Shown here piece by piece: positions 11,559 to 43,447 of a stretch of DNA of 64,000 bases. The DNA lies in assembly GCA_024276015.1 (NCBI GenBank), contig JAJRXZ010000004.1, forward strand, positions 20,216 to 84,215, written 5' to 3'. Numbering within the stretch: the first letter of the stretch is position 1; every line of letters starts with the position of its first letter. The stretch is from Spirochaetota bacterium (lineage in GTDB: Bacteria; Spirochaetota; UBA4802; UBA5550). The position numbers and the translations under genes were made by a program. The notes beneath the pieces were generated by a model. The model saw only the letters and a list, made by a program, of their open reading frames with translations, was not told where the DNA came from and did no database searches.

Positions 11559-11608
11559 ATTTATAATCATTTTTAGTTGAAAAAAAATAGCTATTAAAAT
11601 ATGTTGAA

Positions 11609-11658
11609 TTATACCGATCGTTATTGAGAATTTCCATATTAAATGAATCGGTATATGA
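11609..11658 (+). repeat. Conserved leader element, copy 1 (hairpin 1 only: TATACCGATCG-loop-AATCGGTATA)
   Basis: Near-identical to the first 50 nt of the copies at 14688, 33445 and 43294. Located 20 nt upstream of the DUF1015 start. Confidence 0.7.
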
Positions 11659-13663: not shown

Positions 13664-14263
13664 TTGAAAAATCTTTTTATTGCTGTTATAATTGTTGTTT
13701 TTAAGATTTCTCTATTTGCTCTGCCTCTTGCAGGCGGCGGTATTGGTGAAGATAATCCCATCAATGACCATTACTTTATAGAGCTGGAATTGGGGTGGAA
13801 CGGTTATGTCGGTACCGGGTCGAGAATAGATATCAGCCTGAATGATCATTTCAGTATAAATGCAGGCGCAGGTATGGGGTACTGGGGATACAGATTAGGC
13901 GCCGGTTTCAGGGCCTACAACCGGTTTCCCTATGGTATTGCCTTTGCAATGGGACTTTCCTATAATGGCGGAACTGTTGAACGGGAGATGAAACTGAGAA
14001 CAATCGGCGCAGCAGGTATTGTTGACAAAGATCCTGTTTTAATTGAGCTTAAACCGGTTACTGCAATGAATGTATCTTTTTTGTATTCACTTCCGGCCGG
14101 CAGAAATAAGATCTATCTTGAAATGGGTTATTCCTTTGCTCTGAGCAGTCAAGAATACACCTATATTGTTGAATCGGGAAATGAATTGCATCCTCAATCA
14201 AAGGAAACCCTTGATTCTCTTCGCCCGGGCGGTTTCCTGTTTTCCATCGGATATGCTTTTTAA
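13664..14263 (+). CDS. Putative outer-membrane beta-barrel protein
   Basis: Signal peptide. Alternating Gly/aromatic beta-strand pattern. C-terminal …SIGYAF ending in Phe. Confidence 0.5.
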   Translation: MKNLFIAVIIVVFKISLFALPLAGGGIGEDNPINDHYFIELELGWNGYVGTGSRIDISLNDHFSINAGAGMGYWGYRLGAGFRAYNRFPYGIAFAMGLSYNGGTVEREMKLRTIGAAGIVDKDPVLIELKPVTAMNVSFLYSLPAGRNKIYLEMGYSFALSSQEYTYIVESGNELHPQSKETLDSLRPGGFLFSIGYAF

Positions 14264-14687
14264 GCGTAACATGTTTTAAATGACCGGCAAATATGCATAG
14301 GCTGTTAACAGTTATATGGAATCAATTATTAACTCGACTTAGGCGTTTTTTATATAATATGATGAGCAAATTTGCGAATTTTATTCGTTAACATAATGCA
14401 GAAAAAACGGGTGAAAATCGCCTAACTGGAGTTATTAATTGTTTTGCCGAACCTGCTCTATATAATTTTTATGTAAAAACCAATATATTTAAAAAATATG
14501 TTTGCCAAATAATATTTATATTAAATTTATGTTAATTGCATAGGATATTATAAAAAAAATATTGCTATTTCCACTGTTTTTTTCAGATTGACTTATAGGA
14601 TGAATAGAATGGAGAAGTTTACGCCTGTAGAGAAATAATTTTACAGCAAATATCTATGGATGAGACTTCCTTCTGTTTTGATTGGAC

Positions 14688-14795
14688 TATACCGATCGTT
14701 ATTGAGAATTTCCATATTAAATGAATCGGTATATGATTTAAGCAGGATTTTGCCCTTTGCCAAGGGATAAAATATAGGCTTTTTGATATAAATTA
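14688..14795 (+). repeat. Conserved leader element, copy 2 (hairpin 1 + palindrome GGATTTTGCCCTTTGCCAAGGGATAAAAT + TTTTTGATATAAAT)
   Basis: Read directly from the sequence. Lies 33 nt upstream of the glutamate synthase operon start. Confidence 0.7.
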
Positions 14796-19980: not shown

Positions 19981-21612
19981 TTATTTATATCTGCCGAATC
20001 GGGAAGTAATGGGATAGCGTCTGTCACGGCCGAAGGCTCTTTCTGTTATCCTTACGCCGGGCGGAGCCTGCCGGCGTTTGTATTCGTTGCGGTCAACCAT
20101 CTTTGCAATATCTTTAACAACATTTTCACTGTAACCTGCATTAACTATCTCTTTTATACACTTATCCTGCTCAATATACATCTCAAGAATCGGGTCCAGA
20201 ATATCGTAGGGGGGCAGGCTGTCTTCGTCCTTCTGATTCGGCGCAAGTTCTGCCGAAGGGGGTCGGCTGATTATTCTTCCGGGGATCACCCTTGAAATCG
20301 AATTTCTATAACGGGAAAGTTTATAAACAAGGGTTTTGGATACATCCTTCAATACGCAGAAGCCTCCGGCCATGTCTCCGTACAATGTTGCATAGCCCAC
20401 AGCCATTTCGCTCTTATTGCCGGTTGTTAAAACTATTTTACCCTTTTTATTGGATATGGCCATAAGAATTACTCCTCTGCACCTGGCCTGAATATTTTCT
20501 TCGGTTGTATCCTCGTCATATTCCTTGAATTGGTCTTTTAATGTTTCAAGAAAACTCTTGAAGGCAGATTCGATAGGAATAACGGAAAAATCGACTCCGA
20601 GTTTCTGAGACATTATTTTTGCGTCTTCGATGCTCATATCTGCCGTGTACCTTGACGGCATTGATACGGCTTCGACATTTTTACTGCCTATAGCATCAGC
20701 GGCAATTGCCAGAGTTAAAGCGGAATCTATGCCGCCGGAAAGTCCGATAACAGCGCCGCTGAATCTGTTTTTATTGATGTAATCTCGAACTCCGAGAACC
20801 AGCGCATTGTAGATGTTTTTGATCAGAGGAGCTTTTTTTTCGCAATGGCCTTTAAGAGGTTCAATCCCGTGTTTGGTTCTGTGAAAATCCACCGCTATCA
20901 AGTCTTCTTTGAATGAGTGCCCGCGGTGAGTGATCTCTCCTTTGCTGTTTAATGCGAAGGAAGCGCCGTCAAAAACCAGCTCATCCTGTCCGCCTATCAT
21001 ATTAACATACAGAACAGGAGTTTTGCATTCATTTACTCTTCTTTTCAGCATTTCTTCCCGTTCTGTATTTTTCGCTGTATGATAGGGCGAAGCATTTATA
21101 TTGATAATTATTTTTGCGCCGGCGCTGCATGCCTTCCGTATGGGCTCGGGATACCAGGCATCTTCGCATATTGTTAATCCCACCGGAATATTGTTGATAT
21201 TGATCACAGCCGGTTCTGCGGATGAGATAAAATATCTCTTTTCATCAAAGACACTGTAATTTGGAAGTTTATGCTTTCTATATATTGAAACTATTTCTCC
21301 TCGGCTTATAACAGCAGCGCTGTTAAATGTTCCCTGCGCTGTTTTTTCCGGAAAACCGGCAATTACTGTTATTTTATCCGTATAAGCTTTTATCTTATTG
21401 ATAGCCGATTCGACTCTCATATAGAGTTCGGGTCTCAGCAGGAGATCTTCGGGAGGATATCCCGTAAGAGCAAGTTCAGGAAAGATAACAAGATGAGCGG
21501 ATAATTCATTGCGGCATTTTTCAGTGACTGCAATTATTCTTTCTGCATTCTCCTCGATTGCGCCAACCATAAAGTTTATCTGAGCCATTGCTGTACGAAG
21601 TTGGGAAACCAA
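19981..21612 (-). CDS. nadE: Glutamine-dependent NAD+ synthetase (nitrilase domain + NAD synthetase domain)
   Basis: 543 aa. N-terminal CN-hydrolase. C-terminal PP-loop SGGIDS. Confidence 0.9.
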   Translation of the reverse strand: MVSQLRTAMAQINFMVGAIEENAERIIAVTEKCRNELSAHLVIFPELALTGYPPEDLLLRPELYMRVESAINKIKAYTDKITVIAGFPEKTAQGTFNSAAVISRGEIVSIYRKHKLPNYSVFDEKRYFISSAEPAVININNIPVGLTICEDAWYPEPIRKACSAGAKIIININASPYHTAKNTEREEMLKRRVNECKTPVLYVNMIGGQDELVFDGASFALNSKGEITHRGHSFKEDLIAVDFHRTKHGIEPLKGHCEKKAPLIKNIYNALVLGVRDYINKNRFSGAVIGLSGGIDSALTLAIAADAIGSKNVEAVSMPSRYTADMSIEDAKIMSQKLGVDFSVIPIESAFKSFLETLKDQFKEYDEDTTEENIQARCRGVILMAISNKKGKIVLTTGNKSEMAVGYATLYGDMAGGFCVLKDVSKTLVYKLSRYRNSISRVIPGRIISRPPSAELAPNQKDEDSLPPYDILDPILEMYIEQDKCIKEIVNAGYSENVVKDIAKMVDRNEYKRRQAPPGVRITERAFGRDRRYPITSRFGRYK

Positions 21613-26447: not shown

Positions 26448-27533
26448 TTAAGGCGTCCTTGTAAAGATTTTCTTTATACAATGGATCAACATGCGGTTGC
26501 TCTTCCTGTCCTTTACTGCGAGCCGGATAAATGAATCGTCAAGATATGCGAAATTTGACGCATCCCTGATCAGAATATTTTGTTTCAGCAATTTCTCTTT
26601 CAGTTCGTACGATTTTGTTCCGCATAATATTTTCACAAGAATAAAATTTGTTTCCGAATCGTATGTTTTGAGCTGTTCTATTTTTTTCAGGCTGCCGATC
26701 AAGAATTGTTTCTCTTTTTTTATCAGTGCAAGCGAATTTTCAGCATATACGCTGTTGTTAAGGAGGATTTTTGAGGATAAGTCGGCAAGAATGTTTACTG
26801 TCCATGGCTCTTTTATCGATTTTATCTTCCTGATAAATTCTCTGTTAAAGTTTATGCAGTAACCCAGCCTCAGTCCCGGTATTGCAAAAAATTTTGTAAA
26901 GGATCTGATTATAAAAAGGTTATGATAGGCAGGTGCAAGTTTCATTGAAGACCTTTCTCTCCAGCCTTCAATGAATTCGATAAATGATTCATCAATAATA
27001 AAAAGGGTATTTTTATTTTGGGCACAGAATAAGAGTTCCTGAACTATATTTATATTTGTAAAGGTTCCTGTTGGATTATTGGGGCTGCAGATGTAAATTA
27101 AATCGTAGTTTTTAGATATTTCTTTTAGAATTTTTTTAAGGTTTATTTTGAAATCTTCTTCGTTTAATTTGAAATAATTTATTTCTGTGCCGGTATGTTT
27201 TAGTGAGAGAGCGTATTCTGAAAAGCACGGCGCAATGATCAGCGCCCTTTGCGGCTTAAATACCCTTGGAAGAAGGTATATAAGTTCTGCAGCTCCGTTT
27301 CCGGGAACAATAGTTTCGGGATCAATATTATTATAGCGGGCAATATTTTGAGTCAAATCCGCATAATCGGGATCAGGGTAGTTTTTGATTTTATCGATGT
27401 TTTTTATTAGCGTCTGTTTTAGTTCCGGAGGCAGACCCAGAGGATTAATATTTGAGCTGAAGTCGAGTATATCTTCTTTTTTTATGTTATAATCTCTTTC
27501 GATTCTATAAATGTTGCCGCCGTGGGTATCCAT
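26448..27533 (-). CDS. cobD: Threonine-phosphate decarboxylase CobD (class I/II aminotransferase fold)
   Basis: Aminotransferase class I/II-like. Last gene of the cobalamin nucleotide-loop operon. Confidence 0.75.
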   Translation of the reverse strand: MDTHGGNIYRIERDYNIKKEDILDFSSNINPLGLPPELKQTLIKNIDKIKNYPDPDYADLTQNIARYNNIDPETIVPGNGAAELIYLLPRVFKPQRALIIAPCFSEYALSLKHTGTEINYFKLNEEDFKINLKKILKEISKNYDLIYICSPNNPTGTFTNINIVQELLFCAQNKNTLFIIDESFIEFIEGWRERSSMKLAPAYHNLFIIRSFTKFFAIPGLRLGYCINFNREFIRKIKSIKEPWTVNILADLSSKILLNNSVYAENSLALIKKEKQFLIGSLKKIEQLKTYDSETNFILVKILCGTKSYELKEKLLKQNILIRDASNFAYLDDSFIRLAVKDRKSNRMLIHCIKKIFTRTP

Positions 27534-27542
27534 CTTTTTTAT

Positions 27543-28472
27543 TTATAGTACACTGTTTATTGTAAAGGAAATAGTTAAGCCCGTTATTAACGCTGTTATT
27601 GCCGTTGCATACGTCAGCTTTATGCTTCTTAAGATGTCATTTTTAATCAAAGTTGTTTCGGAGCGGCCTATTACCGGTTTTTTTACGGTGTTTCCGAAAT
27701 ATACGGCATCACCGCCAAGCCTGCAATTGAGCGCTCCTGCAAAGGCGGCTTCGGGATGCGCCGAATTGGGACTTGAGTGATTCAGCCTGTCTCTGCGAGC
27801 GGTCTTTAGGCTGTTTTTATGATCCATACCGCAGAAAAAGGCGGCCGCAGGGATGAGAAAAAAGGCGCTTATTCTTGCCGGTAAAAAATTCATTATATCG
27901 TCCAGTTTTGCTCCTGCCATACCGAAATTAATATATTTATCGTTTTTATATCCGATCATTGAATCTATTGTGCTGACAGCTTTATATGTCATTGCAAGGG
28001 GCGCGCCTCCGATAAATAAATAGAAGATGGGGGAGACAACGGCGTCCACAACATTTTCGGCAACCGTTTCAATTGTTGCTTTCAGAATTTCTTCCTCGTC
28101 CAGTTTGTCCGTATCCCTGCTGACAAGGGTACTTAAGTGTTTTTTGGCTTCGTCGATTTTATTGTTTTCTAATAAAGTGTAAACTCTTCTTGCTTCAACT
28201 GAAAGCGACTTTACGGCAAGGATTGTATATATTAACAGGATTTCCAGAATTAGAGACAGGGATGAGATCAAATGAGCAGTTATATATGAAGAGGAAGTTA
28301 CAATAAGAACCAGTATAATTCCCGCAGTCTTTTGAGAACCCATTTTTATCAGTTTTTTTTCAAGGAATAAGATCAGCTTTCCCATAAGTTTAACCGGGTG
28401 GGGAAAACCGTAAGGGTCTCCCAATATGATATCAAGAACGAATCCCGCTGTTATTTTAAGAGCTGGCAGCAC
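27543..28472 (-). CDS. cbiB: Adenosylcobinamide-phosphate synthase CbiB/CobD
   Basis: Membrane protein with the characteristic N-terminus (…DIILGDPYGFPHPVKLMGKLI…). Confidence 0.88.
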   Translation of the reverse strand: MLPALKITAGFVLDIILGDPYGFPHPVKLMGKLILFLEKKLIKMGSQKTAGIILVLIVTSSSYITAHLISSLSLILEILLIYTILAVKSLSVEARRVYTLLENNKIDEAKKHLSTLVSRDTDKLDEEEILKATIETVAENVVDAVVSPIFYLFIGGAPLAMTYKAVSTIDSMIGYKNDKYINFGMAGAKLDDIMNFLPARISAFFLIPAAAFFCGMDHKNSLKTARRDRLNHSSPNSAHPEAAFAGALNCRLGGDAVYFGNTVKKPVIGRSETTLIKNDILRSIKLTYATAITALITGLTISFTINSVL

Positions 28473-29958
28473 CGGCTTGATCCATTATTTTATATATTTT
28501 GTCAATATCAATTGACTTTCTCAAAGTGTGTGCCAACCTGTTGAATTCCTTCTCCTTCTCTTCGTTAACAGATGTGAACTTCTTTACAGGTTCAAGGCCT
28601 TTTTGGGCCCTTATGTTGTTCAGGAGCCCCCTTGTAAATTTCTGGTTGTCAAAAATGCCGTGTATATATGTGCCCATAATATTCTCGTGTGCAATTCCGC
28701 TGATTCTGTTGTTTATTCTGATAAAGCACCTGTTTTCAATGCTGCCCCTGCTGATCCCCATGTGGATTTCGTATCCCTTGATCTCAGCTCCAATGAGGCC
28801 CTTTAAAATCCCGGAATTCATTTCAACAGAACCTTTTACCTGTTCCGTTAATTTTTTCTTTTCAAGTATGGTGTCCATTTCTATAAAGCCCAGCCCGCTG
28901 ATCTGTCCAACTGAGCTTTCAACGCGGTGAGGATCCCTTATTGACCTGCCCATCATCTGATATCCTCCGCATATACCGATTATCAGTTTGTTCAGATTAT
29001 GGTGTCCAATGATTTTATCTGCAATTCCGTTTTCCTTAATTACCCTAAGGTCTTCAATTGTATTCTTTGTCCCCGGGATTATTATTATGTCGGGATTTTC
29101 AATATCTTCGGCTTTTTCAATAAATTTAAACTTAACATCTTCAAAAAGCCTGAAAACGTCAAAATCGGTAAAATTTGAAATGTGAGGCAGCCTGATGATA
29201 TCAATTTCAATATCGCCCTTTCCCTCCCTTGGATTGAATCTCTCGGTTACGCTGTCTTCGTCTTCAAGATTGATATCGATATATGGAACAACACCGAGTA
29301 CCGGGATCTTGATTATATCTTCGAGCATAGTTAAACCGGGCTTTAATAGCTCAATATCGCCTCTGAACTTGTTTATGATGACTCCCTTAACTCTCTCTCT
29401 TTCGCGGTCATTTAAAAGAAGCATAGTTCCTGCAATTGATGCAAAAACTCCGCCTCTGTCAATATCGGATACCAGAATAACCGGCGAATCTGCAATCTCA
29501 GCCATACCCATATTGACAATATCATTATCTCTCAAATTTATTTCAGCGGGGCTTCCGGCTCCCTCAATAACAATTATATCAAATTTTTCTGCAAGACTTT
29601 TATAGGCCTCAGTTACGATTGTTTTTGCTTTGCTCTTATATTCATGGTACCCGGCAGCGGTCATGTTTTTATAGACAATCCCATTAAGTACAACCTGAGC
29701 ATTTCTATGGCCTGTGGGTTTTAACAGAATGGGGTTCATCAGGGAGGAGGGCCGGAGCCTGCAGGCCTGAGCCTGTACAACCTGAGCCCGTCCCATCTCA
29801 TGTCCCTCGGATGTAACAAAAGAGTTCAGCGACATATTCTGAGATTTGAATGGAGCCACCGCATATCCGTCGCTGCAGAATATTCTGCAGAGTCCTGCAG
29901 TTATAATGCTTTTGCCAACTGAAGAGGCGGTTCCCTGGATCATAATATTCCTGGTCAC
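28456..29958 (-). CDS. cobQ: Cobyric acid synthase CobQ/CbiP
   Basis: N-terminus (MIQGTASSVGKS), then CobQ/CobB/MinD and GATase domains. Confidence 0.9.
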   Translation of the reverse strand: MTRNIMIQGTASSVGKSIITAGLCRIFCSDGYAVAPFKSQNMSLNSFVTSEGHEMGRAQVVQAQACRLRPSSLMNPILLKPTGHRNAQVVLNGIVYKNMTAAGYHEYKSKAKTIVTEAYKSLAEKFDIIVIEGAGSPAEINLRDNDIVNMGMAEIADSPVILVSDIDRGGVFASIAGTMLLLNDRERERVKGVIINKFRGDIELLKPGLTMLEDIIKIPVLGVVPYIDINLEDEDSVTERFNPREGKGDIEIDIIRLPHISNFTDFDVFRLFEDVKFKFIEKAEDIENPDIIIIPGTKNTIEDLRVIKENGIADKIIGHHNLNKLIIGICGGYQMMGRSIRDPHRVESSVGQISGLGFIEMDTILEKKKLTEQVKGSVEMNSGILKGLIGAEIKGYEIHMGISRGSIENRCFIRINNRISGIAHENIMGTYIHGIFDNQKFTRGLLNNIRAQKGLEPVKKFTSVNEEKEKEFNRLAHTLRKSIDIDKIYKIMDQAGAASS

Positions 29959-29962
29959 AGAG

Positions 29963-31003
29963 CTACATTCCTATATCGGCAAATGTTCCCATACGGTTCA
30001 TCATTTCAGTTGCAGCTTCAACAATGTTAAAGGCAAGCGCACAGCCAGTGCCTTCTCCCAGCCGCATATTCATTTTCAGCATTGGTTCAATGCCCAGTAT
30101 TTTCATAATTATTTTAGCGCCCGGTTCTTCACTGACATGAGATCCCATCATAAAGAATTTTGCTTTGGGGTTGATCTTTACTGCCGCAACTGCGGCAGCT
30201 CCGGAAATAAACCCGTCAATTACTATGGGTACTCTTCGCGCCGCTGCTGCAAGGAAACATCCCGTAAGGCCCGCAATGTCAAATCCTCCCACTTTGGACA
30301 GAACGTCAATTGCATTGTCAGGGTCCGGCTTATTTATCTTGACTGCGGTTTTTACAATCTCTTTTTTGCGTTCAAGCCCCTCGTCGTCAAGGCCTGCGCC
30401 CCTTCCGGTCAGTTTGTCCGGATTTTCGCCTGTAAAAGCGTGAAGCACAGCACTGCTGGTTGTTGTGTTTCCGATCCCAACTTCGCCGGTTCCAAGAAGG
30501 TTAACTCCGCTATCTATTGCTTTTTCAGTAATTTCAATTCCTGTTTCTATTGCCTGCACAGCCTCGTCCGCTGTCATGGCAGGTCCTTTTGCTATGTTTG
30601 ACGTTCCATATCTGATTTTTTTATTAATTATTCCCGCTATGGCAATGTCCTTATCAAGGCCCATATCAACAACTACCAGTTCTGAACCGGCATGTCTGGC
30701 AAGAACGGCAACTCCCGATATTCCCGTTGCCATTGTTTGGGCTACCAGATAACTTACGTCTTTAGGGAAAGAACTGATATTCTCCTCAACAACTCCGTTA
30801 TCGGCGCACATCGCGATAATTGCTTTTTTATGGACTCTGTTGAATATTTCACCTGTAATTCCTGAAAGCTGTTTTGCAATTGATTCCAGTTTCCCAAGAC
30901 TGCCGGGAGGTTTCAGCAGATTGTTCAGCCTCTCCTGCGCTTTATCCATAACATCCTCATGTAATGAGCCTATTGATTCGATTGTTTTGTTTAGCTTGTC
31001 CAT
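29963..31003 (-). CDS. cobT: Nicotinate-nucleotide--dimethylbenzimidazole phosphoribosyltransferase CobT
   Basis: CobT-like motifs (…GVANGGVAAN…-type glycine-rich segments, GIGNTT). Confidence 0.9.
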   Translation of the reverse strand: MDKLNKTIESIGSLHEDVMDKAQERLNNLLKPPGSLGKLESIAKQLSGITGEIFNRVHKKAIIAMCADNGVVEENISSFPKDVSYLVAQTMATGISGVAVLARHAGSELVVVDMGLDKDIAIAGIINKKIRYGTSNIAKGPAMTADEAVQAIETGIEITEKAIDSGVNLLGTGEVGIGNTTTSSAVLHAFTGENPDKLTGRGAGLDDEGLERKKEIVKTAVKINKPDPDNAIDVLSKVGGFDIAGLTGCFLAAAARRVPIVIDGFISGAAAVAAVKINPKAKFFMMGSHVSEEPGAKIIMKILGIEPMLKMNMRLGEGTGCALAFNIVEAATEMMNRMGTFADIGM

Positions 31004-31017
31004 AATCTCTCCAGTAA

Positions 31018-31602
31018 TTATTTTTCATTTAATGTTTTTAAATATGTATAATCTCTGCTGAAGCAGAGGCGGGCTATTGTTCCGTTATCGATCTGAAAGC
31101 GCCATGATTTCTCAATAGATTCGAGTAAATAGTATCCGAGAATCGTTCTGATGCAGCCTCCGTGAGAGACAACTGCTATTCTGTTATAGCGGCTTTCAAG
31201 AATGGTATCGATCTCGGCAATAACTTTTCTGCTCATATCGTAAAAGCTCTCGCCTTCGGTAATTTTAAAATTTATCCAGTCCTTTCTCCAATCTTTAAAT
31301 TCCGGGCCGTAGCTTTCTCTGATCTCCTCCCAGGTCAGGCCTTCCCAGCGTCCGAAATTCATCTCCCTTAAATTTTTTGTATGATAAATCTCCTGACCGA
31401 AGTTGATGATTTCAGCAGTTTCTCTGCATCTGAGAAGATCGCTGGAAATTACATAGTCTATTTCTTCGCCTTCCAGTTTGTTCTTTAAATTAAGAGCCTG
31501 ATTTCTCCCTTCATTGTTAAGGCCGATGTCCCTTATGCCGAGGAATCTCCCGTGTCTGTTGTAGTCGGTTTCGCCGTGCCTGATCAATAGCAGTTCCTTC
31601 AT
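31018..31602 (-). CDS. cobC: Alpha-ribazole phosphatase CobC (histidine phosphatase family)
   Basis: LIRHGETDYN phosphoglycerate-mutase-family motif. Position in the cob operon. Confidence 0.8.
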   Translation of the reverse strand: MKELLLIRHGETDYNRHGRFLGIRDIGLNNEGRNQALNLKNKLEGEEIDYVISSDLLRCRETAEIINFGQEIYHTKNLREMNFGRWEGLTWEEIRESYGPEFKDWRKDWINFKITEGESFYDMSRKVIAEIDTILESRYNRIAVVSHGGCIRTILGYYLLESIEKSWRFQIDNGTIARLCFSRDYTYLKTLNEK

Positions 31603-31603
31603 G

Positions 31604-32359
31604 TTATGATCCCCTCATCGGTTTTATTAAATGTGCTGAAAGGAGAAAGACAATTTCTGACATTTCAATAACAGCGCCGAGAATATCTCCTGTTGTTCCG
31701 CCTATTTTTTTCTTTACGTAAGTTGTGAATAAGAGAGTGAAAATGATTGCAGGGATAATTAAAAGAGGCCCCCTAATTCCCAGCATGGCAGTACCTGCTG
31801 CCGCTGTAAGGGCAGTGGATATTATTATTTCTCTGATCCCGGTATTGTTTATATAGGCAGTGCCAAGGCCTTTTTTCTTACCTGCATAGCTGGAAATGCC
31901 GGAACTCCAGGAGATACTCATTCGTGATACCGCAGGCATTAAAATTATTATATATAAATTTGAACTAATATTGAGGGACATTATAAGCATTGTTTTTGCT
32001 AAAATCGTTAAAATGAGCGCCAGCGTTCCGTTTGTGCCTATTCTTGAGTCTTTCATAATTTTTAAAATTTCGTCTGCCGGCCTGTTGCTGGGGATTCCGT
32101 CAAATGTATCTGCAAGGCCGTCCATGTGGAGACCCCCGCTGATCAAAATTTCGGCAATTACCACTGAGAGAGCGGAAAGAGCGCCTGCGCCCGTTTTATT
32201 GAACAGAAGAAAAATTACGCATAACATAACTCCGATGATAAAACCGATTACCGGCGCAAAAATAATCCCCTTTGCAAAATGGGTGTCGTCAAATTCTATT
32301 TTGACCGGTACCGGGATCCTTGTGAAGAACTGCAGCTGTAACAGAAAGCTTCTTATCAT
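31604..32359 (-). CDS. cobS: Adenosylcobinamide-GDP ribazoletransferase (cobalamin synthase) CobS
   Basis: Polytopic membrane protein with the CobS fold. Confidence 0.88.
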   Translation of the reverse strand: MIRSFLLQLQFFTRIPVPVKIEFDDTHFAKGIIFAPVIGFIIGVMLCVIFLLFNKTGAGALSALSVVIAEILISGGLHMDGLADTFDGIPSNRPADEILKIMKDSRIGTNGTLALILTILAKTMLIMSLNISSNLYIIILMPAVSRMSISWSSGISSYAGKKKGLGTAYINNTGIREIIISTALTAAAGTAMLGIRGPLLIIPAIIFTLLFTTYVKKKIGGTTGDILGAVIEMSEIVFLLSAHLIKPMRGS

Positions 32360-32377
32360 GTAATTCGCTCCTTTGGT

Positions 32378-32938
32378 TTACCCTTTGATCTTTACCGGAA
32401 TACCGGAAATCATCAGATAAACTTCGTCGGCGCTTTGCGCAACCGTCTGGTTGGACCTGCCTGCAACATCTCTGAAGTATCTGCCCAGCGGTGCTGCAGG
32501 AACAATGCTCATGCCCACTTCATTGGAAACAATTATAGTTTTCCCTTTAAACTTTTTTGCAGATATAATGATATTCTGTATTTCCGATTCTATTATTTTT
32601 TCGGTTTTTTTTGCGGATTCGGAATTTATGTTTTCCTCTTCCATGCCATTCTCAATGATCATGAGGTTTGAGATCATAATGGTTAAGCAGTCTAATAAAA
32701 TATAACCTGTATTTTCATCAGCCTTCGAGATAATAGAAGCGATGTTTTTGTAGGACTCAAATGTCTGCCAGTTACTGTTTCTTCTTGATCTGTGTATTTT
32801 TATTCTCTCTTTCATCTCTTCGTCAAAGGGTATGGCAGTTGCAATATATACGACATTATCATGCGCATTTAACATACTTTCGGCAAAGGTGCTTTTCCCG
32901 CTTCTTGCTCCGCCTGTAATGAATACTATTTTGCCCAT
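32378..32938 (-). CDS. cobU: Adenosylcobinamide kinase / adenosylcobinamide-phosphate guanylyltransferase CobU
   Basis: MGKIVFITGGARSGKS is the P-loop. First gene after the riboswitch. Confidence 0.9.
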   Translation of the reverse strand: MGKIVFITGGARSGKSTFAESMLNAHDNVVYIATAIPFDEEMKERIKIHRSRRNSNWQTFESYKNIASIISKADENTGYILLDCLTIMISNLMIIENGMEEENINSESAKKTEKIIESEIQNIIISAKKFKGKTIIVSNEVGMSIVPAAPLGRYFRDVAGRSNQTVAQSADEVYLMISGIPVKIKG

Positions 32939-33059: not shown

Positions 33060-33250
33060 GGCAGGGCTCAATGTACAGGCAGGTCTTCTGGCTTACGGAT
33101 CACTCTACTTGCTGCGCCTTCCCATAAGACTTGATAATGACTTACAGTGGCATTCTGCAGCGTTCGTTCCCGATTACAGCGGCGGGCCCGCACCCGAATT
33201 TCACGGGTTTCACTTTTAATCCCATAATGGGAACCTGTACACTATATTAC
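33060..33250 (-). promoter_or_regulatory. Cobalamin (AdoCbl) riboswitch
   Basis: The minus-strand sequence contains the conserved blocks GTGAAA..CGGG, GCCCGCCGCTGTAA, GCCACTG, GGGAAGGCG and the B12 box GTAAGCCAGAAGACCTGCC (plus-strand 33078-33095). Located upstream of cobU. Confidence 0.92.
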
Positions 33251-33444
33251 ACAGTTATCTGAACATGTGATTTATATCTCTCAATTGTCAATAAAAAATA
33301 TATTTATTTTATGATGTTCCGGTTTCAATGAGAGGGTAGTAGAAGGAATTTGTTCTTTAAAATAATAAAAGAAACTACGTATTAATGCTTATTTACTTGA
33401 TAATAAGAATTATGTAAATTATAATTGCTGTAATATTCAGGTCA

Positions 33445-33552
33445 TTATACCGATCATAATTGAAGATATTATATTAAATGAATCGGTATATGATCTGATC
33501 AGGATTTTACCCTTTGCAAAGGGACAAAATCGATATTTTTTGATATATATAT
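33445..33552 (+). repeat. Conserved leader element, copy 3 (hairpin 1 + palindrome GGATTTTACCCTTTGCAAAGGGACAAAATC + TTTTTTGATATATAT)
   Basis: Read directly from the sequence. Lies 60 nt upstream of the multiheme cytochrome gene start. Confidence 0.7.
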
Positions 33553-33612
33553 GATAAAAGGGATTGATAAATCTAATTGGGTGAAAAATCGGATTTTTGT
33601 CAGGAGTCATTT

Positions 33613-36600
33613 ATGTTAGAGCACCTATCTCCTTATTCCAGACCGCCCCTCTTCATAATGATGTTTCTGTTCTTTGCTTTTCCCAAATGCAGTGATCTGA
33701 GGGATTACCCCGATACGCAAATATCCGAATGTTCCGCTTCCCAGTGCCATCCATCAACGCTGTTAAAGCAGTACCCTCCGGCAAGCGGTAAACATACCCG
33801 GCACTTAAACAGAGGCTTAATATGTGAGAATTGCCATAATGATTATCTCAACAGACCTCAACACAAGAATGGGAAACTGGATCTTTCCGGAGATACAGTT
33901 ATTGTATATTTTGATAAACTGAACGGTTCCACAATATGGGACAATTCATCGGACGCCTGTTCTAATATTGACTGTCACGGCGGAGCTCCTTCTTCCATAA
34001 GCTGGTATGGCGATACAGCCGGTTGTACCGAATGTCATACTGGGGGGAGTACAATTGATCCTGTATCAACCAATGGCGAAAAGGAGAGCGGCAAGCATAT
34101 ATCTCATGTGCAAGATCAGAATATATCATGCAATTCGTGCCATAACGATTATATGTCGAATGCCATGCATATTAATGGAATATACGGCAGGGCCGAAAAG
34201 AACCCTGTTGTTATTTTTGATGCATCCAATCCTTGGGCTCAATGGGATAATGAAAATACTTCATGCAGTCTTATGGATTGCCACGGCACGCTTGACTGGT
34301 ATTCCACAGGATCATATTCGTGCCTGTCATGTCACGCGCCCGGAACGACCTATGATCCCTTAACTATCAATGGTTCCGGGAATTCGGGAAAGCACATAAA
34401 ACATGCAGGCAGCCTCAATTATGATTGTGAAAAATGTCATAAGAATTACGGAGATGCCCCTGAACACAGGAACGGCCTTCTGGATACGGGTGATCCCTCT
34501 GTTATGATGACCTTTTTCGATTCAACAAATCCTGCAGGGCAGTGGATTGGCGATACAGGAGAGGGTAAGGGCATGTGTTCTTCTCTTGCATGCCATGGGA
34601 CATCAGTTCCGGAATGGTACGGGACCGCTTCATGGTCTCTGCCCTCATGTGATACGTGCCACGCTTCTGTAATAAACTCAAGGAGGCAGATTCTTGGAAC
34701 AGGCGGAGATTTTGGGGCTAATCCCGGAATAAAGTCTCATCATATTACCGGCAGTGCAGATCCTTCTGATGAGCAGTGCAAAGTATGCCATGATCTTTCT
34801 TCCCATATGGGCGGAACCGTTATCCTTAATAATGCCGATGACGGTACAGGTATTGTATATGATCCTTCAATTCCTTCAACGCTTGAGGATTTTTGTTTAA
34901 GCTGTCACGATCCAAACGGCGCATCTGTGACTTTTGCATCTGTCGGATCACCGCTGGATCCTTTCGGCGAAAAATCAGGATCGGATCTGCTGGGCATCCC
35001 CCCTTATTCCTATGCAGCAAGGATCAGCGCAAGCTGGCAAAAAAAATACGGCCACGGATCAACTAATACCGATCCTGCGGATTTTCAGAATGTAAATGTA
35101 AAAATGAGAACAACCGGGAGCAGGCTTACATGTATGGGCAGCGGCGCGCCAGGTACCGGATGCCATGGAAGTAACGGAAATATCAATGCTCACGGATCGG
35201 TAAATGAGGTTATTTCAGCGGCACAGTTTGATTATTCGGCAATGTCTCAGATCTATGACGAGTCATGGTTTTCACTCTGTTTTAACTGCCATTCTTCTTA
35301 TCCCGGCGTTACAAAAGAGGATATTCTCGGCGTAAAAGAAGACGGAATTCTCGATATGAGATACGGCAATATGAAAAGCAGGCCCGGAGATGCCAATAAG
35401 GAATTTAATCCTCCTTATTATATTTCACGCGTTGTAACTCACTTTGCAGATCACAATGCAGGGTCGATTTATCTTGGAGGAATGCCTCAGGGCATAATTA
35501 ATGCAGGCGGTTATATATGGGTGGGATTGACCTATGACGATAAAGTATTAAAATTAGATAAATCCACAGGAGAGATATTAGCGGTAATAGCGGCTGATTC
35601 AAGTCCCGGTGTGGTGAACGGCTTTGCCTATGACAGTGACAATAATTATGTATGGGTTACAAATCAGGGCAGCAGCAGCATCGTCACTAAAATAAAAGCG
35701 GATGATAACAGTGTTACAAATGTTGCAATAGCTCAATCCGGGCAGTATAGCATTATATATGCCAATGCCTCAATATGGCTTACTGCAAACGGCAGGCTTC
35801 TGCAGTTAGATCCCGCAACAAACAGTACTTTAAACACTTATGATTTTTCGCCGAAAAGTCTCATGGGTATGGCTTACGACGGACAGTATATCTGGCTGGC
35901 CAGCGGCAATGAGGTCATGAAAATAGATCCTCTCGACGGATTAACTGTTAATACTGTTTCGGTTGGATCGAGTCCTTATTCCGTAAGATACTATGACGGA
36001 TATATATGGGTTGCAAACACAGGAGGCGGATCTATCACAAAAATTGATCCCTCATCCGATTCCGTGCTGGCTGATATTTATGCGGGCGATCATCCCATAG
36101 ATATGACCTATGACGGCCAGTATTTATGGGTAGCTCTCAACAGTTATAACGGCGTGTCCAAAATTGATATTTCTTCCGATACGGTGATTGACACATATCA
36201 GATGAACGGCAGATCTCTTGGTGTTGCTTATGACAACTCAGGACATATTATGACAACCGATATTGACAATTATTCTTTAACAAAACTGAATATATCGACC
36301 GGTCTGATGGATGGCGACGCTTACGGGATCAATGATTCGCCTGTGCATCTGACAGCTACTAAAAACAGTATGAACCTTCACTGGTACCACATGAGGTTTT
36401 ATACGAATTTCAGAGGCAACGAGATCCCTGCTCCTGATACGGGTGCGGGTGAATATTTCAAAAGAGGAGAACTTTGCGATAATTGCCACAGAATATTTGA
36501 ATTCGGCAAAAACTTATCCTGCGTTAACTGCCACGATGTACACGGCTCCGATAATCCGAACGGTGCGGTTTACGACGAGATCGGATATGCGAGAGTGGAC

Positions 36601-36765
36601 GGCTTCTGGGGGTCTTACGGGAAGCTGCCGGATCTGATCCCCGATCTTGATCAGTATCCCGCATATTGCGCATATAACTGCCACAATGCGGATCAGTATC
36701 TCCATCAAGACAAGATGGATTTAAAACCGCCTAACAAGGCATGGTTTGATCCTATTACCGAGTGA
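33613..36765 (+). CDS. Secreted multiheme c-type cytochrome (Geobacter-type CX4CH...CXXCH repeat domains) fused to a YVTN/NHL-like beta-propeller repeat region
   Basis: At least 11 CxxCH motifs, plus 4 CX4CH (for example CSNIDCH, CSLMDCH) and one CX3CH, arranged in a ~90-aa repeat. Central beta-propeller-like repeats (YIWVANTGGGSITKIDPSSDSV…). Start chosen at the ATG at 33613, which follows an AGGAG RBS and precedes a signal peptide. Confidence 0.8.
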   Translation: MLEHLSPYSRPPLFIMMFLFFAFPKCSDLRDYPDTQISECSASQCHPSTLLKQYPPASGKHTRHLNRGLICENCHNDYLNRPQHKNGKLDLSGDTVIVYFDKLNGSTIWDNSSDACSNIDCHGGAPSSISWYGDTAGCTECHTGGSTIDPVSTNGEKESGKHISHVQDQNISCNSCHNDYMSNAMHINGIYGRAEKNPVVIFDASNPWAQWDNENTSCSLMDCHGTLDWYSTGSYSCLSCHAPGTTYDPLTINGSGNSGKHIKHAGSLNYDCEKCHKNYGDAPEHRNGLLDTGDPSVMMTFFDSTNPAGQWIGDTGEGKGMCSSLACHGTSVPEWYGTASWSLPSCDTCHASVINSRRQILGTGGDFGANPGIKSHHITGSADPSDEQCKVCHDLSSHMGGTVILNNADDGTGIVYDPSIPSTLEDFCLSCHDPNGASVTFASVGSPLDPFGEKSGSDLLGIPPYSYAARISASWQKKYGHGSTNTDPADFQNVNVKMRTTGSRLTCMGSGAPGTGCHGSNGNINAHGSVNEVISAAQFDYSAMSQIYDESWFSLCFNCHSSYPGVTKEDILGVKEDGILDMRYGNMKSRPGDANKEFNPPYYISRVVTHFADHNAGSIYLGGMPQGIINAGGYIWVGLTYDDKVLKLDKSTGEILAVIAADSSPGVVNGFAYDSDNNYVWVTNQGSSSIVTKIKADDNSVTNVAIAQSGQYSIIYANASIWLTANGRLLQLDPATNSTLNTYDFSPKSLMGMAYDGQYIWLASGNEVMKIDPLDGLTVNTVSVGSSPYSVRYYDGYIWVANTGGGSITKIDPSSDSVLADIYAGDHPIDMTYDGQYLWVALNSYNGVSKIDISSDTVIDTYQMNGRSLGVAYDNSGHIMTTDIDNYSLTKLNISTGLMDGDAYGINDSPVHLTATKNSMNLHWYHMRFYTNFRGNEIPAPDTGAGEYFKRGELCDNCHRIFEFGKNLSCVNCHDVHGSDNPNGAVYDEIGYARVDGFWGSYGKLPDLIPDLDQYPAYCAYNCHNADQYLHQDKMDLKPPNKAWFDPITE

Positions 36766-37840
36766 CGAACCTTCTTGTTGCTTCTTCTATTTCAGCGGTT
36801 TTATTCTTAACCATCCGGATCAGAAGGTCTTTCACTTTGACTCTCTCCTTGTGATTTCTGTCCAGTTTCTGTTCCAAGTCCTCAAGAATTTTTTTCAAAT
36901 TTCCGGAAGCCATGAGCTTTTTTCGCAAAAGAAAGGATTTGCTTTTATTATACTGCTGTGTTTCGTATGTAAGGTAAGCATTATACTGGCTTACAATGCA
37001 GAGTATATCCTTATAAAATCCGCTCAGCTTGTTAAAGAATCCTGAGAACGCTTTAACCAGATCTTTTTCGTTCTTAACGTCGGAATAAGTTCCTCCTGAC
37101 GAAGAAGCGATCTGTGACAATTGCCTTCTTGTTCTTCTGTCAACTCCAAGGCCTATGACAAAAACATCGGGATTTATAAGGCTTACTTTCAGGTCAATAA
37201 TTGCTTTTACAGGATTCCCTCCGCAGCTCTCCATTCCGTCGCTTATCAGGATGAGTGTGTTATTTTCATTTTCAATTCCTTTGAAGTATTCGTATGATCT
37301 GTTAAGGGTCATTGCAATGGGCGTAAGCCCTCCGGGTCTAATTGCGTCGATTTTACTATTGATTCTGCTTCTGTTGGATTTTCCTATAGGTGCAATTAAT
37401 TCGATGCTGTCCTCTCCGCAGGATGCTTTTCCATAAAGGACGAATCCGAGTCTGATAGATTGAGGCAGGGAGTCTATATATTTTTTCAGGATTTTTTTTG
37501 CAAGTCCCATTCTTGTGCCGCTTCCCAGCGCGGTTTTCATGCTTCCGGAACCGTCGAGGATCAATAAAATATTGTGCGGTTTTGCAAGCTTCAGCAAATC
37601 TGTTTTTATCATGCCGCACTTTCCGCCTCTGTTGCTTTTGACAAGAGCTTCGTTTAATCTGTGGTTATATCCGGTCCGGATCTCAAGGTCGTCAGGAAAA
37701 CCGTCATGGTCAATATCTCTGGTGAATGGAAGGTCTTTGCTGTGAGCTGCTTGGCAGAAAAATATTAACGCTATAACAAAAGTAAGTTTTAGATTTTTTC
37801 TATTTTTCATAATTGCTCCTCCAATTAACAATTTTAACAA
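36755..37840 (-). CDS. von Willebrand factor type A (VWA) domain secreted protein with C-terminal coiled coil
   Basis: Signal peptide. VWA MIDAS-like motif DGSGSM. Confidence 0.78.
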   Translation of the reverse strand: MLKLLIGGAIMKNRKNLKLTFVIALIFFCQAAHSKDLPFTRDIDHDGFPDDLEIRTGYNHRLNEALVKSNRGGKCGMIKTDLLKLAKPHNILLILDGSGSMKTALGSGTRMGLAKKILKKYIDSLPQSIRLGFVLYGKASCGEDSIELIAPIGKSNRSRINSKIDAIRPGGLTPIAMTLNRSYEYFKGIENENNTLILISDGMESCGGNPVKAIIDLKVSLINPDVFVIGLGVDRRTRRQLSQIASSSGGTYSDVKNEKDLVKAFSGFFNKLSGFYKDILCIVSQYNAYLTYETQQYNKSKSFLLRKKLMASGNLKKILEDLEQKLDRNHKERVKVKDLLIRMVKNKTAEIEEATRRFVTR

Positions 37841-43222: not shown

Positions 43223-43293
43223 TTTACCGGTTCTCTATGTTCTGTTTGGGCATATTTCCTTGACTTATATTGAAGAGAATAATTATAAATATA

Positions 43294-43400
43294 TTATACC
43301 GATCATCATTGAAAATTTCCATATTAAACGAATCGGTATATAATTTGATCAGGATTTTGCCCTTTGCAGAAGGACAAAATCGATGCTTTTCGATATATAT
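43294..43400 (+). repeat. Conserved leader element, copy 4 (hairpin 1 + palindrome GGATTTTGCCCTTTGCAGAAGGACAAAATC + CTTTTCGATATATAT)
   Basis: Read directly from the sequence. Lies 48 nt upstream of the MCP gene start. Confidence 0.7.
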
Positions 43401-43447
43401 TGAACCGTCTTTCTTTAATAACCGACACTTTACGAATGAGGTAAGTA

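Follow-up and report, generated by a model that had tools for sequence, protein, structure and literature searches.

Here we describe a single gene and its surroundings in a stretch of DNA of 64,000 nucleotides (the window, meaning the whole stretch that was analysed, to which all coordinates refer unless another locus is named) from a Spirochaetota bacterium, namely positions 20,216 to 84,215 of contig JAJRXZ010000004.1 in assembly GCA_024276015.1. The origin agrees with the GroEL of the host, whose best named matches (81-85% identity) are all from Spirochaetota metagenome-assembled genomes. The gene lies on the plus strand at 33613..36765, with its stop codon at 36763-36765, and encodes a protein of 1050 amino acids which, by its motifs and its Pfam and TIGR01904 matches, is a multihaem cytochrome, and into which a seven-bladed beta-propeller has been inserted. 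The full open reading frame (ORF) spans 33577-36765 (+) and could also be opened by a TTG at 33577; we prefer the ATG at 33613, which gives the 1050-residue product, because of a Shine-Dalgarno sequence that can be read in front of it (AGGAG, 33602..33606, plus strand, 6 nt 5' of the ATG). A candidate sigma-70-like promoter on the same strand at 33397..33425 (TTGATA, a 17-nt spacer and TATAAT), called by consensus match alone, agrees with the consensus at 11 of 12 positions, is the top candidate of the region and would leave a leader of about 185 nt before the gene. The G+C content at third codon positions (GC3) is 0.42, within the host range of 0.35-0.49, and a recent horizontal transfer of the gene, which we considered, is thus unsupported.

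An essential feature of the protein is its density of haem-binding motifs. Eleven CxxCH motifs (at residues 71, 138, 173, 237, 272, 346, 389, 428, 556, 955 and 970) are accompanied by four Cx4CH motifs (40, 116, 218 and 322) and one Cx3CH motif (1019), and this recount is identical to that of an earlier note on this DNA, which had described a 1050-residue protein with 11, four and one such motifs. By comparison, 20,000 shuffles of the residues gave on average 0.046 CxxCH motifs (maximum 3) and 1.4 CH dipeptides (maximum 8), where the real protein has 11 and 17, respectively. More than one CxxCH is seen in none of the other ORF segments of the window.

The N-terminus (residues 1-26; 33613..33690, plus strand) is a signal peptide that ends in a candidate lipidated cysteine, Cys26 (MLEHLSPYSRPPLFIMMFLFFAFPKC). 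This cysteine directly follows the hydrophobic region and is kept in at least 90% of 28 relatives, in which the corresponding lipoboxes read AAGC, FLNC, LSRC or INAC. The family would therefore, judged by sequence, consist of lipoproteins, and the conserved cysteine points to a lipoprotein-type signal where the protein had first been described as simply secreted; the signal peptide itself stands. All other cysteines are accounted for by haem motifs, given that 34 of the 35 in the protein fall in 17 C..CH sites and Cys26 is the only one outside them.

The signal peptide is followed by four tandem c7-like repeat units (residues 36-420; 33718..34872, plus strand), delineated by self-alignment, Pfam and TIGR01904, which hold haem motifs 1-11, that is all four Cx4CH and seven of the CxxCH motifs, together with, in each unit, the histidines of the GKHxxH and H.NG elements. 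The repeating unit follows the pattern Cx4CH...WY...CxxCH...DP..NG...GKHxxH...CxxCH..Y....H.NG, with copy 1 lacking the middle haem and copy 4 being divergent. Such a unit had been noticed before and put at about 90 residues; it is real and present in four copies, but its length is closer to 100. The Pfam models Cytochrome_C7 (44.5 bits against a cut-off of 24.8) and Cytochrom_c3_2 (32.1 against 25) are both passed. The two further models that the earlier note had named for its proposed Geobacter-type repeat cytochrome gave different outcomes: TIGR01904 is passed over three stretches, with a small margin (27.7 bits against 27), in agreement with that proposal, while the doubled-CXXCH models TIGR01905 (13.4 against 25.2) and PF09699 (10.3 against 20.6) both stay below cut-off. 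On these matches, the window protein is classed as a TIGR01904-type cytochrome, at threshold, of the c7/c3 superfamily. It shares the repeated unit of Cx4CH followed by CxxCH with the cytochromes of this type, first defined in Geobacter sulfurreducens, and its relatives are annotated under the TIGR01904-type name by both NCBI and JGI. On the other hand, residues of about 340-615 and 915-1050 as well as the propeller fall outside the model, and the host is a spirochaete rather than a member of the Desulfuromonadia. A weak similarity of residues 337-435 to domain II/IV of MtrC/MtrF (PF22113, 20.5 bits against a cut-off of 30) amounts to resemblance and not to membership in the MtrC/OmcA family, for which TIGR03507 gave no match either.

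The repeats lead into the core that defines the family (residues 421-615; 34873..35457, plus strand), which carries haem motifs 12-14, ends with THFADHN and was recognised by columns that are invariant in sets of 28 and 51 relatives. Together with the C-terminal part, it contains the conserved blocks RRQ..G..GDFG, FCLSCHD..GA, LTC.G.G.PGTGCHG, LCF.CH..YPG.TKE, THFADHN, NLHW.H, CVNCHDVHG and a final Cx2-4CH. One of these blocks holds an additional candidate site with an unusually long loop, CX9CH (C507-MGSGAPGTG-C517-H518; 35131..35166, plus strand; within LTCMGSGAPGTGCHGS). Its C507, C517 and H518 are invariant in the 28 aligned relatives (alignment A1) and nearly so in 51, and the pattern C-x-G-x-G-x3-4-G-C-H is kept, with the spacing CX8CH or CX9CH, even in distant members (Thiodiazotropha, Sideroxydans, Nitrospinota and Chloroflexota). 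From this conservation, the site is a probable place of haem attachment. The 16 conventional sites implied by an earlier estimate of up to 16 haems hold, and the CX9CH adds a seventeenth candidate. The haem cysteines and histidines and the GKHxxH histidines are likewise invariant or nearly so in both sets of relatives, and 21 further histidines outside the signal peptide and the propeller would provide enough distal ligands for bis-His ligation of 17 haems.

Long-loop attachment sites have precedents. Multihaem cytochrome MccA requires a dedicated lyase for its CX15CH motif, and none of this kind is visible for the window protein; OmcZ has CX14CH, and CX11CH and CX17CH motifs are known as well. 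All share with our candidate two cysteines, a long loop between them and a following histidine, conserved in a multihaem protein, but differ in their spacing, which is 8-9 residues in this family, where the site is a candidate. A recent review gives CXCK, CX2CK, CX3CH, CX4CH, CX11CH, CX15CH and CX17CH as the known unconventional haem motifs (PMC11492766); none of these has a loop of 8-9 residues, nor did the searchable literature describe haem binding through a loop of this length.

The most distinctive part of the protein is the propeller itself (residues 616-905; 35458..36327, plus strand), identified by an AlphaFold2 (AF2) model and by sequence and fold matches. For residues 625-900 the model, with a predicted local distance difference test score (pLDDT) of about 90, shows seven blades of four strands each (28 in all), and the peptide YIWVANTGGGSITKIDPSSDSV (residues 796-817) lies within this fold. 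Its top match in the Protein Data Bank is 1l0q, a surface-layer protein of Methanosarcina mazei, both by sequence (E 1.2e-10) and by Foldseek (E 2.8e-15), with a root-mean-square deviation of 2.2 A over 265 columns at 24% identity; Escherichia coli YncE and the leptospiral antigen Lp49 are also among the top matches, while TIGR02276 scores just under its cut-off (26.7 bits against 27.85). The likeness to 1l0q and YncE lies in the seven blades of about 40 residues each; these two carry no haem.

Some 50 relatives, 450-950 residues long, lack the propeller, and in them THFADHN connects to NLHW.H via a short loop. One good example is P0006 (744 residues, 16 haem sites), which AF2 models from 51 sequences with a mean pLDDT of 81.8 and a predicted template modelling score of 0.65: the segment equivalent to the propeller is a coil loop of 15 residues (pLDDT 83-90), as opposed to about 300 residues in the window protein. 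Since relatives without a propeller hold this loop at the same place, the propeller is an internal insertion. The YVTN/NHL-like propeller proposed earlier is therefore borne out as a seven-bladed fold of the YVTN type, but as an insertion and not as a terminal fusion.

Behind the propeller, a linker and a C-terminal haem domain (residues 906-1050; 36328..36762, plus strand; delineated in alignments A1 and A3) contain His912, NLHWYHM and haem motifs 15 (C955), 16 (C970) and 17 (C1019, Cx3CH), the last of which ranges from Cx2CH to Cx4CH among relatives. Motif 15 (CDNCH, residues 955-959; 36475..36489, plus strand) occurs in all five propeller-bearing sequences that we found and is absent from the propeller-less relatives, and the same is true of His912, invariant in the five. 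It may be that CDNCH and His912 together form one additional bis-His haem beside the propeller. Within the propeller, the residues that are invariant across the five sequences are structural glycine, tryptophan, aspartate and lysine, with no invariant histidine, cysteine or methionine among them. This pattern speaks for a role as a scaffold or in docking, and against a site that binds a metal or cofactor.

The combination is rare. Continuous alignments running from cytochrome through propeller and back into cytochrome were found for the window protein and four others among 1.84 billion protein cluster representatives, namely P0002, P0045, P0046 (from a high-GC organism) and P0047 (a fragment). 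P0045 matches a translated ORF of L001, a locus of a Spirochaetota single-cell genome, and one scan of 185,579 species genomes recovered the propeller in L001 alone; a scan of metagenomes gave no propeller-bearing member beyond the known contig of P0046. An assembly chimera was considered and rejected, as the architecture recurs in five independent sequences: their identities of 41-58% and their origin from independent samples rule it out. At the locus of P0046, a gene for a 339-residue NHL/ScyF-like propeller protein precedes the cytochrome gene (L081 3217-4236 and L082 1339-2358), the stop and start codons of the two overlapping; this locus combines two propellers with one cytochrome, and the upstream NHL gene is the sole associated gene.

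The relatives without a propeller are spread over Spirochaetota, Nitrospirota/Thermodesulfovibrionales, Acidiferrobacterales (Gammaproteobacteria) and others, and their gene contexts bear on what the scaffold does. At 29 of 45 loci of close relatives, a conserved protein of about 450-490 residues and further multihaem cytochromes are encoded within 6 kb of the homologue, and the window scaffold is 40-55% identical to these cluster-borne proteins. The conserved protein (for example L003 7924-9399, L016 7896-9260 and L021 6822-8258), which in every case has multihaem cytochromes on its flanks, carries a signal peptide, is rich in aromatic residues, ends in ...RYDF or ...RYDY and shows 40-45% identity between Nitrospirota, Acidiferrobacterales and Spirochaetes, while no Pfam or NCBIfam family matched it. 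Outer-membrane barrel proteins typically end in an aromatic residue, and the protein is probably, to judge from these features, an outer-membrane beta-barrel representing an uncharacterised porin family of porin-cytochrome conduits. Typical are the clusters of L003, L016 and L021, in which four genes encode a 9-11-haem doubled-CXXCH cytochrome, the putative barrel, a cytochrome with 7 haems and the family lipoprotein, with the 9-11-haem cytochrome being DmsE/MtrA-like (TIGR03508, 96.6 bits, below cut-off). Porin-cytochrome conduits are laid out in this way (PMC5566968, PMC9900912), and in these clusters the family protein stands where a conduit would have MtrC or OmcB. Such clusters are carried by six of 11 Spirochaetota loci, meaning that multihaem systems exist in this phylum; very large cytochromes encoded beside family members in two Spirochaetota loci (1070 residues with 32 CH sites at L004 12016-15228, and 898 residues with 23 CH sites at L022 11532-14228) show that they are extensive.

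The comparison with characterised surface cytochromes shows both likenesses and differences. With MtrC and OmcA of Shewanella and with OmcB, ExtC and ExtD of Geobacter, the window protein shares many haems and a lipoprotein signal, with an N-terminal signal sequence and a conserved cysteine; its relatives adjoin a beta-barrel-like protein and an MtrA/DmsE-like periplasmic cytochrome, as in conduits of the MtrC/OmcB type, and many of them carry the Pfam match to MtrC/MtrF domain II/IV in precomputed annotation. The differences are that MtrC/OmcB-type proteins have 5-12 haems as opposed to 17 sites, that a propeller is inserted here and that Foldseek matched no MtrC-like solved structure to the family. 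The PCC3 cytochromes of Fe(II) oxidisers (PMC5566968; PMC9900912) are similar in being large, repeat-built extracellular proteins with CX2-4CH motifs, and proteins of Sideroxydans and Thiodiazotropha share core residues 357-561 at 34-36% identity, with no multihaem neighbours within 6 kb of these matches. However, the periplasmic cytochromes of PCC3 have 21-27 haems, as against 7-11 in the clusters of close relatives; judged by gene context, no PCC3 system is present in the window and the clusters of the relatives differ in make-up.

A propeller tied to outer multihaem cytochromes is also known from NHL proteins. The clusters DFE_0448-0451 and DFE_0461-0465 of Desulfovibrio ferrophilus encode free-standing NHL propeller proteins for which protein-protein contacts were proposed (PMC5815863), and for UetH and UetI in the Uet cluster of Ca. 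Tenderia the proposal was protein contacts or adhesion (10.1101/2022.05.06.490989); Gmet_0556 of G. metallireducens is a further case. Taken together, the authors of these studies propose protein-protein contact, adhesion or stabilisation of complexes for NHL propellers in electron-transfer clusters (PMC5815863; 10.1101/2022.05.06.490989). All of these are separate polypeptides, whereas the propeller of the window protein is of the YVTN type and is spliced into the cytochrome chain together with an extra haem motif.

What the analysis shows are the motifs and how far they are conserved, the arrangement of the domains, the place of the insertion and the genes around relatives. From these we think it fairly probable that the window protein is a multihaem c-type cytochrome held by a lipid anchor, with 16 haem sites of conventional type and a probable further one, the CX9CH, and that it serves as the outer-surface component of a route for extracellular electron transfer. 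Other bacteria use surface cytochromes to pass electrons to minerals or partner cells, and the window protein is a rare variant of these. Its Cys26, once lipidated, would tether it to a membrane; the four c7-like repeats, with 11 haems, and the core, with six, would line up haems, mostly bis-His, for electrons to hop along; and the propeller, spliced into a core loop next to the last haems in sequence, would most likely serve for docking to a mineral surface, a partner protein or a partner cell. As the terminal component at the cell surface, with its haems loaded and electrons flowing outwards, the cytochrome would in the simplest reading give a fermentative spirochaete an external electron sink. 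The position of propeller-less relatives in porin-cytochrome-type clusters, at 29 of the 45 loci, supports this surface role, and lends indirect support to the earlier suggestion of extracellular electron transfer or of a redox-active surface protein.

Upstream of the gene and divergent from it lies a seven-gene operon for cobalamin salvage and nucleotide-loop assembly (26448-32938, minus strand; cobU, cobS, a histidine phosphatase gene, cobT, cobQ, cbiB and an aminotransferase gene), headed by a full-length cobalamin riboswitch (33061-33253, minus strand, 118 bits). On the other side, as the earlier note had it, the gene converges with that for a secreted or lipoprotein VWA-domain protein (36755-37840, minus strand), the 3' ends overlapping by 11 nt. 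In Ca. Tenderia, too, VWA genes (BatA/BatB) come after the Uet cytochrome cluster (10.1101/2022.05.06.490989), but we rejected the VWA neighbour as a conserved partner since none of the related loci holds a homologue. Elsewhere, the window has genes for Rex, glutamate-synthase-like enzymes, flavodoxin, phosphofructokinase, acyl-CoA metabolism, chemotaxis and two-component proteins, and the neighbouring genes fit an anaerobic, fermentative or amino-acid-degrading organism, in line with the fermentative character already ascribed to the window. One further protein, of 199 residues (13664-14263, plus strand), has a signal-like N-terminus, is rich in glycine and aromatic residues, ends in ...SIGYAF, has no Pfam match and, by these sequence features, resembles a small outer-membrane beta-barrel.

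The window also contains four plus-strand copies of a repeated intergenic element (11604-11658, 14682-14794, 33445-33551 and 43289-43401), each 20-65 nt 5' of a plus-strand ATG. The genes behind them are a DUF1015 gene, an unknown gene of 380 codons' worth of protein, the cytochrome gene and a chemoreceptor gene; copy 3 had already been placed directly in front of the cytochrome gene, and its coordinates put it just upstream, in the putative 5' leader. The element consists of two hairpins, the first formed by TATACCGATC...GAATCGGTATA and the second by GGATTTTGCCCTTTGCAAAGGGACAAAATC followed by a T-rich stretch, and copy 1 has only the first of them. Its core pattern occurs four times where none is expected by chance. 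On the other hand, no Rfam family matched it, the three long copies show no covariation, its fold has a z-score of only -1.67 and it is absent from all of 83 related loci. The element may be a shared leader or operator.

Several observations weigh against placing the cytochrome at the end of an extracellular electron-transfer route. The window of 64 kb holds no porin-like partner, second multihaem cytochrome or quinol dehydrogenase, and thus lacks the adjacent genes for a beta-barrel and a periplasmic multihaem cytochrome that mark the MtrC/OmcB type; nor does it hold ccm/ccs genes for cytochrome maturation. Of the propeller-bearing genes, three have a context that can be read (those of the window, L001 and L081/L082), and porin or cytochrome neighbours are missing from all three. 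The lipobox of the window protein, FPKC, has an atypical lysine at position -1, and the leaflet in which a lipid anchor would sit, being a matter of lipoprotein sorting, is not readable from sequence. The AF2 model of the window protein is poor in the cytochrome part (pLDDT 30-58) and trustworthy in the propeller alone, no solved structure matched the cytochrome scaffold by sequence or by Foldseek, and the searchable literature holds no experimental study of a member of this subfamily.

These points leave room for a main rival, in which the protein would store electrons in the periplasm, or serve there as a wire or as the reductase of a soluble acceptor. Its anchor would sit in the inner membrane or in the outer membrane's inner leaflet, and the propeller would bind a periplasmic partner or substrate. 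No outer-membrane conduit would then be needed, which would explain the missing conduit neighbours, both in the window and beside the propeller-bearing members, none of which adjoins a porin or MtrA-like gene. The unreadable sorting of the lipoprotein is compatible with it, and the NHL propeller gene translationally coupled to P0046 would suggest a soluble complex. We nevertheless regard a periplasmic location as unlikely, if a serious contender, given that the scaffold is orthologous to proteins at the outer-surface position of porin-cytochrome clusters, that the nearest propeller fold comes from a cell-surface layer protein and that the propeller has no conserved catalytic or ligand-binding residues.

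The absence of maturation genes and of other cytochromes from 64 kb bears on another alternative as well: a strict fermenter unable to mature c-type cytochromes could carry the gene as a non-functional, horizontally acquired remnant. Neither ccm/ccs genes nor, by regular expression, a WWD-motif protein (CcsA/CcmF/CcmC) came up in the window or among the ORFs of 80 related loci, and the patchy spread of the family across phyla is consistent with horizontal transfer. A relic would however hardly be expected to keep its frame intact over 3.15 kb with every haem cysteine and histidine in place, a good Shine-Dalgarno sequence, a promoter-like site and a host-like GC3; related Spirochaetota, moreover, hold whole cytochrome clusters, and we consider this reading very improbable.

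Enzymes combining haems and a propeller do exist, among them cytochrome cd1 nitrite reductase, hydrazine synthase and nitrous-oxide reductase, and by their example the propeller could house an active site, or give it its shape, with the haem chain feeding it. Residues 726-911 weakly match the propeller of lactonase-type NosZ, but at 24.1 bits against a cut-off of 700 the match is sub-threshold, and the scores are far under family cut-offs. The lack of any invariant histidine, cysteine or methionine in the five propellers leaves no copper or haem d1 site supported, and the top fold matches are non-enzymatic YVTN and WD40 propellers, making catalysis in the propeller very improbable. Least likely of all is a protein that is primarily an adhesin or surface structure, with a functional propeller and haems used for redox sensing rather than bulk electron transfer: the S-layer protein and the leptospiral surface antigen Lp49 among the nearest propeller matches, and the upstream element common to the cytochrome and chemoreceptor genes, would suit it, but 17 haem sites, about one per 43 residues outside the propeller, would be typical of wires and not of sensors, and most family members have no propeller at all.

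New about the surface cytochrome that we favour are the propeller within its chain, which comes with an extra haem, the CX8-9CH site, which is conserved, and the spirochaete host. A bolder version would see the propeller-bearing subfamily as a self-contained electron plug, that is a haem wire ending in a docking propeller which discharges onto minerals or syntrophic partners, with CX8-9CH as an unlisted covalent attachment site possibly needing a specialised lyase; this we put forward only as speculation, and rather doubt. If CX8-9CH does bind haem, the few unconventional attachment motifs would be joined by one with a new spacing, and the usual counters of CX2-4CH would miss a conserved site. 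With the inserted propeller, a haem wire has in nature been given a binding module through the insertion of a domain, where other organisms encode such a propeller as a separate protein, and it occurs in a cytochrome family without a solved structure. Free-living spirochaetes are usually treated as plain fermenters. If the surface role proves true, it would mean, together with the full clusters of porin-cytochrome-like type in related Spirochaetota genomes, that part of this phylum can use external electron acceptors or donors, and the way in which the role of spirochaetes in sediments and aquifers is modelled would change.

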